Source: Candidatus Liptonbacteria bacterium
GTDB lineage: Bacteria > Patescibacteriota > Minisyncoccia > UBA6257 > 2-01-FULL-56-20
Length of the DNA: 64,000 nucleotides
Direction: 5' to 3'
NCBI GenBank assembly: GCA_023244895.1
Contig: JAHFLL010000001.1
Location: 617,802 to 681,801 of the forward strand
Part shown: one piece after another, positions 43,466-45,097 of the stretch
Numbering within the stretch: the stretch's first letter is position 1
Layout of the letters: the number at the start of each line of letters is the position of its first letter
The notes under the pieces: model-generated
What the model was told of the DNA's origin: nothing
The model's database searches: none
Seen by the model: the letters and a program-made list of their open reading frames with translations, nothing else
Program-made: the position numbers and the translations under genes

Positions 43466-43800
43466 GGTTCGTGTCCTCCCAGGCGACCGCTTGTAGCGGC
43501 GGGCCTGATGGCTGTCAAAGTCGATAGTAGCGCGCAACGCACGCACCACCGAGGAGGGTTAGCCAAACCCTCACATCTTTTTGCATTATACCTCAAATAT
43601 ACAAAATTGTCCAATCCGGCCTAAACCCCGTAAATCCTAGCTAAACCAGCCCCAAGCCCCCCATTTCCTGAGTTAGTCTTGACAGGATAGAGCAAAACAA
43701 TCATCCAATATCTAGGTATTTAAAATTGCGGAATAATAACCAATATGCAAATATTAGAATAGAGTCGTTGAAATCCCACAATGGAAGGAGGTGATGAAAA

Positions 43801-43944
43801 GTGAACCTGGCTATCATGCAAGTCGAAGACCTGCATCTGACTGAAGACTTCGTCTTCCAGGACGAACAGGCGACGTCGTTGCCAATGCAGCCGTGCTCGA
43901 TCTGCAGCAACTGCTGCTACTCGGACTGCACCGGCGGGAACTAG
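43801..43944 (+). CDS. candidate RiPP precursor peptide (47 aa, acidic leader + Cys-rich core)
   Basis: GTG 43801 with AGGAGG 9 nt upstream; translation MNLAIMQVEDLHLTEDFVFQDEQATSLPMQPCSICSNCCYSDCTGGN stop (tag 43942-43944). Below the ORF-track length cutoff. Confidence 0.6.
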   Translation: MNLAIMQVEDLHLTEDFVFQDEQATSLPMQPCSICSNCCYSDCTGGN

Positions 43945-43952
43945 CGCAACTC

Positions 43953-43986
43953 GCGGGAGAGGCCACGAACGAGTCGCCTCTCCCGC
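43953..43986 (+). promoter_or_regulatory. intercistronic hairpin (attenuator-like) between precursor and rSAM genes
   Basis: gcgggagaggc cacgaacgagtc gcctctcccgc, an 11-bp GC-rich stem. Confidence 0.55.
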
Positions 43987-44006
43987 TCAAATCAACGAGG
44001 ACCGCT

Positions 44007-45020
44007 ATGTCTATAAAGTTGTGCCAATGGGATATCACGGGTTCGTGCAACCTCAACTGCACCTACTGCAGAGAAAAGGCTACCGAGGGGCTGCACCATC
44101 TGCCCCTGGAAGCCATTCTCCGCATAATCGACCAGTTCGCAGACCTCAAGGTCAGGATGGTATCCATCTCGGGCGGAGAACCGTTGACCCTGAAGTTTCT
44201 ACCGCAGGTCCTGGAATACCTGCGGGGCAAGGTGGAGACCATCGGACTAACCACGAACGCCACTCTGGTTTCGGAACGGAACGTTGGTTTCATCCGAGAC
44301 TTCTTCGATGGAGTGCAAGTCAGCCTAGACGGCAGTTCCGCGGAAATCCACGATCGCTTTCGCGGAGAAGGATCGTTCAATCTCACCACGACGGCGATTC
44401 GCCTCATGGTTGAGCGGGGCATCAACGTCATGCCACGCTTGACCATCTGCAGAGAGAACCTGAGCGACACGGCCGAATATGTCCGACTAGCCCATCGCCT
44501 GGGAATGAAGTCGGCATATCTCCGAAGAATGATCCCCGCCGGCAACAGCAAGGGAGTGGACCCCATTCCCGCCGATAGGCTAAAGGAAGCCTTCCGGGTG
44601 GCTTTCCAAGTCGGACAAGAGCTCGGTCTACACGTGGGCTCTGCTGACTACTTCTCTCAACTGGAGTTCGACGCGAAGGAACGCGAGAAAGCAGAGAGGA
44701 ACCTAGCCGAACATCCAGGCGAACTCTTGAGCGGGTGCTCAATCGGTACGGAAGCATTCTACCTGGCACAAGACGGCAAGGTGCTCTTCTGTCCGTACCT
44801 GCCCGTGTACTGTGGGGACATGACTAAGGAACACCTCTCCGAGATTTGGGCCACTTCCAAAATGTTCAAGATCAGTCGCAATCTGCGCTGGAACATCGAG
44901 GGAAAGTGCGGGCGGTGCCGCTTCAAGATGGCATGTGGCGGATGCCCGGCGTACGTCTTCCTGACAACCGGCAATCTGACCTCCTCAGACGGCGGATGCT
45001 GGGTCGACGAGCCAGCCTGA
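44007..45020 (+). CDS. radical SAM / SPASM-domain peptide-modifying enzyme
   Basis: CX3CX2C cluster CNLNCTYC near N-terminus (MSIKLCQWDITGSCNLNCTYCRE), C-terminal SPASM-type Cys cluster (CSIGTEAFY...CPYLPVYCG...EGKCGRCRFKMACGGCPAYVF). ORF track frame 43893..45020; ATG 44007 preferred. Confidence 0.85.
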   Translation: MSIKLCQWDITGSCNLNCTYCREKATEGLHHLPLEAILRIIDQFADLKVRMVSISGGEPLTLKFLPQVLEYLRGKVETIGLTTNATLVSERNVGFIRDFFDGVQVSLDGSSAEIHDRFRGEGSFNLTTTAIRLMVERGINVMPRLTICRENLSDTAEYVRLAHRLGMKSAYLRRMIPAGNSKGVDPIPADRLKEAFRVAFQVGQELGLHVGSADYFSQLEFDAKEREKAERNLAEHPGELLSGCSIGTEAFYLAQDGKVLFCPYLPVYCGDMTKEHLSEIWATSKMFKISRNLRWNIEGKCGRCRFKMACGGCPAYVFLTTGNLTSSDGGCWVDEPA

Positions 45021-45097
45021 TTAACGTTGAGTAGCCATGAGCAAGTCTGAGGCTAGCACCCCCAACGGGGGAACTGCTAGCCTCAGATAAAAATTCT

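Follow-up and report, generated by a model that had tools for sequence, protein, structure and literature searches.

We analysed a 64,000-nucleotide stretch of contig JAHFLL010000001.1 from a Candidatus Liptonbacteria bacterium (hereafter the window), in which the gene of a short, cysteine-rich peptide precedes the genes of a radical S-adenosylmethionine (SAM) enzyme with a SPASM domain and of a small methyltransferase. An earlier note, made from the letters of the sequence, had singled out the small open reading frame (ORF), which it called unannotated, the stem-loop behind it and the radical SAM enzyme as a candidate unit for a peptide that is ribosomally synthesised and then modified post-translationally (RiPP). 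The locus contains the following features.

43786..43791, + strand: Shine-Dalgarno sequence AGGAGG, read from the sequence, 9 nt before the GTG at 43801 of the peptide gene
43801..43944, + strand: precursor peptide gene, 47 amino acids, from the ORF listing; product MNLAIMQVEDLHLTEDFVFQDEQATSLPMQPCSICSNCCYSDCTGGN
43801-43893, + strand: peptide leader, residues 1-31, including the motif VEDLHLTEDFVF
43894-43941, + strand: peptide core, residues 32-47, CSICSNCCYSDCTGGN
43953-43986, + strand: stem-loop between the peptide and enzyme genes, an inverted repeat with the stem GCGGGAGAGGC/GCCTCTCCCGC
44007..45020, + strand: radical SAM/SPASM enzyme, 337 amino acids, ATG at 44007 and stop at 45020, with matches to PF04055 and PF13186
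45045..45088, + strand: second stem-loop, between the radical SAM and methyltransferase genes, with a folding free energy (dG) of -34 kcal/mol and a z-score of -5.7
45098..45625, + strand: class I SAM-dependent methyltransferase, 175 amino acids, Pfam Methyltransf_25

The peptide, the radical SAM enzyme and the methyltransferase very probably form a real and uncatalogued peptide-modification system, as judged by comparing the sequences of their relatives. The codon pattern indicates that the small ORF is a protein-coding gene under purifying selection, because its core is conserved across loci of 28–56% guanine-plus-cytosine (GC) content with an excess of synonymous changes: the core codon differences, summed over pairs, amount to 146 synonymous versus 76 non-synonymous in group A and 210 versus 73 in group B (the groups are given below). 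The GTG start at 43801 behind AGGAGG is present as had been described, and the frame is conserved in all close relatives. The exact 47-residue sequence is on record from Logan gene calls only, not in NCBI or ENA, which fits the description of the ORF as unannotated; the enzyme and methyltransferase proteins are on record in NCBI and ENA as well.

The enzyme family, searched for among 5.8 billion proteins, is sharply bounded and comprises about 38 proteins of 37–100% identity scoring at least 246 bits, and the next proteins beyond it are about 30% identical at no more than 182 bits, several of them annotated as heme b synthase. Public assemblies, the species genomes of GTDB and metagenomes of JGI supplied the DNA neighbourhoods of the family. 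A homologous small ORF lies in frame directly upstream of the enzyme gene in every family locus with enough upstream sequence, ending 59–98 nt before it, or 12 nt in the loci L133 and L134. A hidden Markov model (HMM) of the precursor, built from 17 peptides and run on the six-frame translations of L001-L139 and the window, matches 25 locus records with E-values from 9e-23 to 2e-12. All 25 adjoin a radical SAM enzyme at least 37% identical to that of the window, and no match below an E-value of 0.01 was obtained in about 113 loci of SPASM homologs with 21–34% identity. The metagenome scan added only four family loci (L053-L056), and the remaining metagenome loci, carrying heme-synthase-like homologs of about 30% identity, served as negative controls. 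This distribution (25/25 versus 0/~113), together with the leader/core layout and the purifying selection on the core, is that of a RiPP system in the generic sense, a gene-encoded leader/core precursor co-inherited with a neighbouring enzyme. The proposal that precursor, hairpin and SPASM enzyme are one RiPP-type unit is strongly supported by the co-occurrence and by the conserved hairpin, and the lack of conservation or of co-occurrence of the small ORF, which the earlier note had named as grounds for abandoning its proposal, was not observed.

All family peptides share in the alignment the leader motif h-x-[DE]-L-x-h-[P]-x-[DNSG]-F-x-[FV], in short form h-x-DL-x-h-P-x-DF-x-F, followed at a fixed distance of about 20 residues by an invariant C-x-[ILV]-C, with tails varying by subgroup.

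Group A (including the window): enzyme identity to the window 62–77%; core C-x-I/L-C-x-[ND]-C-C-x-[ST]-D-C-x-G-G-x, then stop; methyltransferase adjacent
Group B (the commonest): enzyme identity 41–46%; core C-[ST]-I-C-[CS]-[DE]-C-C-[LMR]-C-E-x-G-G-[VAH], then stop; methyltransferase adjacent
Group C: enzyme identity 50%; core SCGICSKCCDH, then stop; methyltransferase adjacent, fused to TPR repeats
Group D: enzyme identity 37–39%; core [AS]-C-[KR]-h-C-x-P-[ST], then a basic tail; no adjacent methyltransferase seen

The peptides are 39–76 residues long with 2 to 6 Cys between subgroups, the window peptide carrying five within its final 16 residues, and their C-terminal residue varies (N, Y, V, Q, A or H). 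Groups A and B show the spacings C7-x3-D11 and C7-x3-E11, respectively. The combination of a constant recognition segment with a variable Cys-rich segment presents itself as the classic leader/core layout of RiPPs. Among NCBIfam models, no relevant one, that of SCIFF (six Cys in forty-five residues; TIGR03973) included, matched the 17 precursors at E-values up to 1, and the window peptide has no Pfam match. A profile search of the 5.8-billion-sequence collection yielded 35 called peptides, all without a name beyond "hypothetical protein". The family is rare: when 1.84 billion representatives at 50% identity were searched exhaustively, only 19 clusters came up.

The locus L008, from a Patescibacteria metagenome-assembled genome (MAG; JAIPJO010000012.1), carries a transposase gene of the insertion sequence (IS) type (433 amino acids, minus strand, 2469-3770) between precursor and radical SAM genes. 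Both the gene of the peptide (2193-2351) and that of the enzyme (from 4001) are retained despite this insertion (locus 2193-4996), and the expression of the two may be uncoupled.

The stem-loop between the peptide and enzyme genes begins 8 nt past the peptide stop and has a perfect 11-bp GC stem, as the earlier note had reported, which extends to 14 bp at 93% complementarity. Its dG is -34.1 kcal/mol with z = -5.2, and 0/200 shuffles fold as well. When we folded the peptide-enzyme spacers of 18 loci, a strong, near-perfect stem-loop was found in 16 of them, the exceptions being L015 and L133, the latter with a spacer of only 12 nt. The stem-loops at this conserved position have 10–15 bp and z-scores of -2.5 to -5.9 versus mononucleotide shuffles, their sequences are mutually unrelated, and a T-run follows the hairpin in L012, L014, L053, L054 and L056. 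Because position and structure are conserved without conservation of sequence, the hairpin appears to be a functional RNA element. Such hairpins give partial termination or 3'-end stabilisation in lantibiotic and sactipeptide operons, and by analogy the hairpin might act in either way to raise the peptide transcript over that of the enzyme. No known RNA family was detected in the intergenic regions with Rfam at gathering thresholds, and no sigma-70-type promoter on the + strand upstream of the peptide met the scan consensus.

The enzyme is 337 residues long, not 338 as previously stated, and the CX3CX2C and SPASM motifs ascribed to it were confirmed. It belongs to the radical SAM superfamily and its SPASM subfamily, scoring 79.8 bits with Pfam Radical_SAM (PF04055, cutoff 29.5) and 33.6 bits with Pfam SPASM (PF13186, cutoff 21.5). 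The CX3CX2C motif occupies residues 14-21, with C14, C18 and C21 invariant in the family alignment, and the conserved Cys of the SPASM region are C244, C262, C269, C301, C304, C310, C313 and C331. These form the pattern C244-x12-G257-x4-C262 ... C301-x2-C304-x5-C310-x2-C313 ... C331 plus the extra C269, at least 90% conserved, with a spacing of x2 where the canonical CX9-15GX4C ... CX2CX5CX3C ... C has x3. C269 sits in the hallmark segment CPYLPVxCG and is common to 3/4 heme-b-synthase-like homologs; CteB has a non-Cys residue at the aligned position. Only 13 residues stand ahead of the cluster motif and 6 past the last SPASM Cys, so there is no room for a RiPP recognition element (RRE) domain in the enzyme, and no PqqD/RRE Pfam match was found in the enzyme or the scanned neighbour genes.

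The NCBIfam scan of the enzyme gave 89 matches. The figures below come from the best 25 of the 89, none of which reaches its curated cutoff and among which the SCIFF maturase model TIGR03974 does not appear.

AhbD (heme b synthase, TIGR04545): 165 bits, cutoff 500, E-value 3e-48, the top match
TIGR04053: 144 bits, cutoff 395
NirJ: 117 bits, cutoff 515
WgkB: 110 bits, cutoff 650
StsB (sactisynthase, NF045574): 109.9 bits, cutoff 625
MftC (TIGR03962): 109.9 bits, cutoff 265
PapB (NF047865): 67.8 bits, cutoff 340
AlbA (NF012164): 62.7 bits, cutoff 850

The enzyme qualified for none of the curated families it was compared with, and we rejected filing the enzyme as AhbD, NirJ, MftC, PapB, AlbA, StsB or WgkB on account of these scores. 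The firm clustering with non-RiPP SPASM enzymes that the earlier note had regarded as fatal to its proposal was likewise not seen, none of the 25 best NCBIfam matches reaching its cutoff. When the family profile was compared with the PDB, the sactisynthase SkfB came first (4e-30, over the radical SAM core), then PqqE, and CteB was aligned over its full length. The AlphaFold2 model of the enzyme (predicted local distance difference test, pLDDT, 93; predicted TM-score, pTM, 0.90) has its best PDB matches in CteB, SkfB, SuiB, anSME, PqqE and ChlB, with TM-scores normalised to the query (TMq) of 0.68–0.79, or 0.69–0.79 for the first four. These six enzymes all modify peptides or proteins.

The methyltransferase, which had been taken for merely a downstream gene, is in fact a conserved member of the cassette in the subgroups with a CC motif. 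Its class I fold is minimal, and an H-x-H at the C-terminus is invariant. A homolog adjoins the radical SAM gene in all loci of groups A–C that extend far enough; in the alignment of 12 other loci, it follows the radical SAM gene in 10 and precedes it in L009 and L011; in group C (L133/L134) it is fused to N-terminal TPR repeats, giving a protein of 455 amino acids. In group D, whose peptides are without the CC tail, no methyltransferase was seen next to the enzyme on the contigs at hand, which are short. Because it is present in groups A–C and none was seen in group D, the methyltransferase seems to be a third cassette member linked to the CC-containing tail. Its profile matches include TehB in 7/13 members and TPMT in 2/13, and its PDB matches are PEAMT, TehB and BamL, the plantazolicin N-methyltransferase, all of them generic class I matches. 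We therefore rejected assigning a methylation target from these relatives.

Among known systems, the cassette is closest in organisation to SCIFF and its maturase, in enzyme architecture to PapB, MftC and AhbD, and in fold to CteB, SkfB, SuiB and anSME. SCIFF, a Clostridia family (CteA/CteB, Tte1186a/Tte1186), likewise has a peptide of about 45 residues with a Cys-rich C-terminal core, encoded upstream of a single radical SAM/SPASM enzyme, and is minimal, with neither a protease nor an exporter of its own; CteB is also the best structural match. However, an RRE of about 100 residues stands at the N-terminus of CteB (the alignment starts at CteB residue 102), and CteB has seven SPASM Cys versus eight in the family of the window enzyme, whereas the window cassette adds a conserved methyltransferase and sits in Patescibacteria. 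The sactipeptide synthases SkfB, the best PDB sequence match, AlbA and StsB also act on Cys-containing precursors encoded upstream, and in sboA-albA a hairpin intervenes between the precursor and enzyme genes. The window enzyme lies far below the StsB and AlbA cutoffs. It lacks the N-terminal extension of the sactisynthases, as SkfB aligns from residue 111 and the StsB and AlbA profiles from 97 and 117, and the core of the window family, with 10–16 residues, is too short for the classical nested hairpin topology of sactipeptides. Sactipeptides are defined by a thioether from Cys sulfur to C-alpha and ranthipeptides by one to C-beta or C-gamma. The class proposed in the earlier note, a sactipeptide or ranthipeptide of the SCIFF kind, is thus not established, given that no precursor family matched, the sactisynthase and PapB models scored far below cutoff, an RRE is lacking and the SPASM region has eight Cys.

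The profile of PapB (PapB/PapA, the system of the beta-thioether ranthipeptide freyrasin), with 330 positions, aligns end to end with the enzyme (10-325 versus 9-328), and the C-x3-D/E spacing of group A and B peptides resembles the CX3D motif cross-linked by PapB. The score is nevertheless well short of the PapB cutoff, and the window peptide has one possible CX3[DE] site versus six repeats for PapB. PapB was predicted to have three Cys at auxiliary cluster I (AuxI) (PMC10177961), whereas one more Cys is conserved in the window enzyme family. AhbD, NirJ and TIGR04053 resemble the window enzyme in their end-to-end alignment, a length of about 340 residues, the lack of an RRE and the eight-Cys pattern that includes C269, but the scores are far below cutoff and the identity is about 30%. 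The window family is defined by its co-occurring precursor, which is found at none of the ~113 distant SPASM loci, many of them heme-b-synthase-like, and the neighbourhoods examined showed no genes of tetrapyrrole metabolism. MftC of mycofactocin biosynthesis is similarly a SPASM enzyme of about 340 residues without a fused RRE that acts with a short peptide, aligns end to end and gives an intracellular, cofactor-like product with no exporter. In contrast to that system, no MftB- or PqqD-like RRE protein adjoins the window cassette, and the C-termini of the window family vary where the mycofactocin precursor ends in an invariant GVY; the MftC cutoff was not reached.

We consider it moderately likely that the three genes constitute a compact, horizontally mobile RiPP-type cassette operating as follows. 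The leader would be recognised directly by the RRE-less radical SAM/SPASM enzyme, which would cleave SAM to the 5'-deoxyadenosyl radical. The radical would take hydrogen from the core at or beside the invariant C-x-[ILV]-C, and the enzyme would form one or more intramolecular cross-links, preferably a thioether from Cys sulfur to carbon, with the second electron removed through two auxiliary Fe-S clusters. The small methyltransferase would then tailor the extended CC-containing tail, for which S-methylation of the remaining Cys is our leading guess because of the resemblance to TehB and TPMT. The hairpin, as partial terminator or 3'-end stabiliser, would keep the peptide mRNA above that of the enzyme. 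As no exporter or protease is conserved nearby, the product may act intracellularly or rely on general machinery of the host, a view also taken of SCIFF.

In this scheme, it is highly likely that the peptide is the substrate of the enzyme. Provided that it is, a thioether has somewhat less than an even chance of being the product. Thioethers are the usual outcome with Cys-rich cores, and the Cys-rich core, the structural matches to CteB and SkfB and the C-x3-D/E spacing in groups A and B make one plausible here. Thioether formation is also described as the commonest reaction of radical SAM RiPP maturases, and PapB acts on CX3D motifs (PMC10177961), and RRE-independent maturation of RiPPs has been discussed for DarE, the radical SAM enzyme maturing darobactin (PMC10705402).

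Several observations weigh against this picture. The analysis shows the reality of the gene, its co-occurrence with the enzyme, the leader/core layout, the class and fold of the enzyme, the conservation of the hairpin, the methyltransferase as partner and the mobility; the substrate relationship, the bond type, the methylation target, the function of the hairpin and all of the modification chemistry are what we infer. Only the CxhC is universal across the family, which speaks against a thioether, and the CX3[DE] spacing was not found in the peptides of groups C and D. The best curated matches of the enzyme are the non-RiPP enzymes AhbD, TIGR04053 and NirJ, ahead of the sactisynthase and PapB models, and eight SPASM Cys are kept throughout the family. 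AhbD, anSME and SuiB have a four-Cys AuxI, and CteB, PapB and Tte1186 a three-Cys AuxI with an open iron that binds the substrate thiolate (PMC10452713; PMC10177961). With C269 as a putative AuxI ligand, the eight SPASM Cys are mild evidence against thioether formation by the mechanism of CteB. In the loci examined, the conserved neighbours of the cassette include no protease, ABC exporter or immunity gene, in agreement with the absence of a dedicated protease or exporter reported for the window. Finally, the window hairpin is followed by no T-run or U-tract and is therefore not a canonical terminator.

Peptide and enzyme might instead be a substrate-enzyme pair whose chemistry is not thioether formation, an explanation that we find unlikely, though still a serious competitor. 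The enzyme would then stem from an eight-Cys AhbD/NirJ/MftC-like branch and carry out oxidative decarboxylation, anSME-like Cys oxidation, epimerisation or an unprecedented reaction at the CxhC, and would yield a cofactor-like peptide that stays inside the cell as a redox or metal-binding agent instead of a secreted bioactive. The ranking of AhbD, TIGR04053 and NirJ and the end-to-end alignment of MftC point this way, as do C269, shared with heme-b-synthase-like homologs, the absence of a conserved exporter or protease and the sole universal core feature, CxhC, a classic metal- or redox-active motif. A four-Cys AuxI is moreover taken to rule out that the substrate binds the cluster directly (PMC10452713), the model fits anSME about as well as any other target (TMq up to 0.79; normalised to the target, TMt, 0.74), and the C-x-P-[ST] of group D loosely resembles the anSME target C-x-P-x-R. 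Yet all these HMM scores lie far under the family cutoffs, C269 is only a putative AuxI ligand, and thioether formation is described as the commonest reaction among radical SAM maturases (PMC10177961); a decarboxylation at a fixed residue, as by MftC or AhbD, misfits some subgroups because neither the C-terminal residue nor D/E is universally conserved.

Two further explanations deny that the peptide is modified. The Cys-rich peptide might be an accessory of the enzyme that carries metal or Fe-S, donates electrons or serves as a chaperone, the enzyme acting on another molecule, which we regard as improbable. CxxC and CC motifs do bind metals, the enzyme has no RRE, and modification of the peptide is itself a deduction. 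Against this stand the RiPP-like layout, in which an acidic conserved N-terminal motif keeps a fixed distance from a hypervariable tail, and the range of 2–6 Cys, which a structural metal site would not tolerate. The 39–76-residue peptides are without predicted fold-like conservation outside the motifs, and the conserved hairpin, giving an excess of peptide transcript, fits a stoichiometric substrate. Alternatively, the enzyme could be an ordinary cofactor-biosynthesis SPASM enzyme of AhbD/NirJ type, with the small ORF spurious or a regulatory upstream ORF, in line with heme b synthase AhbD as top NCBIfam match (E-value 3e-48) and with the labels 'heme b synthase' or 'AdoMet-dependent heme synthase' given to homologs in some databases. 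This seems very improbable, being largely refuted by the codon pattern and the co-occurrence: the amino acids of the ORF are conserved across the range of GC contents with a synonymous excess, and the ORF occurs only with the enzyme family. The AhbD score falls short of its cutoff (165 versus 500 bits), identity to annotated heme b synthases is 29–31% with a score gap of at least 246 versus at most 182 bits, and the neighbourhoods examined showed no further gene of the siroheme or heme pathway.

The methyltransferase differs from its neighbours in base composition, as does the cassette from the window at large.

Window average: GC 48.5%
Peptide gene: GC 57%, GC at third codon positions (GC3) 83%
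Radical SAM gene: GC 57%, GC3 70%
Two upstream lipoprotein genes: GC 60–63%, GC3 69–75%
Methyltransferase gene: GC 37.5%, GC3 43%

The GC-rich island of the earlier note is real, fewer than 1% of 1.2-kb windows being as GC-rich as the peptide and radical SAM unit, but its limits were different: it starts at about 42.4 kb, takes in duplicated lipoprotein genes and stops before the methyltransferase. We compared the methyltransferase with the adjacent radical SAM gene in the window (45021-45625) and in L002, L004, L007, L009-L012, L014, L015 and L138, and its GC and GC3 are lower in 11/11 loci, whatever the GC of the host, with GC3 values of 0.43 versus 0.70 in the window and 0.24 versus 0.56 in L010. 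Since the step recurs in all 11 loci measured, we rejected the GC step at 45020/45098 as an acquisition boundary. No direct repeats or att sites flanking the island were found beyond the lipoprotein duplication.

The lipoprotein-like genes lie in tandem at 42497-42967 and 43028-43549 on the minus strand (region 42442-43549) and repeat about every 525 bp. A 98-nt segment (signal peptide/lipobox) is common to both at 100% identity and so is a 45-nt terminator hairpin at 98%; their mature domains are just 40–49% identical, and both weakly match the NCBIfam 'lipo-invert' tail domain. The two appear to have arisen by duplication with gene conversion, or to be a pair of variable surface lipoproteins. 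We rejected these GC-rich genes as members of the cassette, as no homolog occurs in any other cassette locus.

The earlier note had suggested horizontal acquisition from the GC content, and horizontal mobility of the cassette gains support from its distribution. The cassette recurs in about two dozen other bacteria, mostly ultra-small ones, and is spread over MAGs of Parcubacteria, Falkowbacteria, Moraniibacteriota, Minisyncoccia, Saccharibacteria and unclassified Patescibacteria, and the nearest relatives of the window cassette are Patescibacteria. The single cultured carrier is the alphaproteobacterium Rhodobium orientis DSM 11290 (L015 1-8993, NZ_NPEV01000033.1), with a group B cassette whose GC is under that of the host (49% in the radical SAM gene, 56% for the locus). 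Its peptide gene ends at 3919, and the radical SAM gene (3980-4999) and the methyltransferase gene (5059-5523) follow. The cassette is flanked by a Replic_Relax (relaxase-like) gene, DUF3768, two ATPases of the TrwB/TraG type (type IV coupling protein, T4CP) and a large serine recombinase, and looks from these genes to lie in an integrative mobilisable element. In L138, the neighbours are Bro-N and a PIF1 helicase. Both loci support horizontal mobility of the cassette. A phage origin was rejected, as a scan of the IMG/VR viral contigs found no family member, the best match being 34% identical over a fragment.

A type IV pilus cluster on the minus strand of the window (38262-53275) is interrupted by the lipoprotein pair and by the cassette, which lies on the + strand.

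51521-53275, minus strand: PilB
50339-51412, minus strand: PilT
48998-50209, minus strand: PilC
48323-48796, minus strand: pilin-like ORF
47450-48307, minus strand: prepilin peptidase
minus strand: pseudopilins, and further pilin-like genes from 39143

The pilus cluster also encodes a secreted, Cys-rich protein of 865 residues (39767-42364), in which KYKCSGNSC modules recur and an SdrD_B domain is present. Elsewhere in the window, the 23S rRNA gene (9665-13013, minus strand) is 3349 nt long versus 2925 nt for the Rfam model, owing to about 420 nt of inserted sequence; no obvious homing-endonuclease-like ORF was seen and no intron family matched at E-values up to 0.001, and a 5S rRNA gene (9465-9571) adjoins it. 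The length of the 23S gene, the nearest relatives, which are Patescibacteria, and the 840,672-bp size of the source contig agree with an origin of the window in the candidate phyla radiation. Two observations concern other cassette loci. In L004 only, a stand-alone cysteine peptidase of the C39 family (164 amino acids, 2433-2927) is encoded about 2 kb upstream of the cassette, its link to which is doubtful because the leaders have no double-glycine site. In group C (L133, region 4792-8620, and L134), an 825-residue protein with MopE copper-binding and M10 peptidase domains is encoded about 3.7 kb downstream, and could hint at a metal connection.

Our literature searches on the motif, on ranthipeptides of the candidate phyla radiation (CPR) and on AhbD-like RiPP enzymes returned general surveys of biosynthetic gene clusters and reviews only. 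Surveys of Patescibacteria reported nine such clusters (PMC8692599) or none (PMC11613949). Two large catalogues of RiPP radical SAM enzymes were built on RRE association or neighbouring transporters (PMC10288494), and the cassette family, having no RRE and no transporter seen adjacent, would be missed by both, which marks a blind spot. The enzyme stands between SPASM enzymes of the tetrapyrrole type and those of the peptide type, so its chemistry could be new. At its boldest, the cassette would represent an unrecognised class of RRE-independent radical SAM peptide maturase from the eight-Cys AhbD/NirJ-like branch, with a new reaction at C-x-[ILV]-C, dedicated methylation and an intracellular redox- or metal-binding product, kept and exchanged on mobile elements by CPR bacteria; this we put forward as a speculation that is rather unlikely to hold in full. 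The copy in Rhodobium orientis DSM 11290 resides in a tractable host, where the cassette can be tested without culturing a CPR organism. Within the well-populated field of radical SAM-modified peptides, the cassette is real, conserved and uncatalogued, and possibly performs new chemistry. It adds a verified, conserved peptide-modification cassette to the Patescibacteria/CPR, where few or no clusters have been reported and where, in reduced genomes, each retained gene needs explaining.

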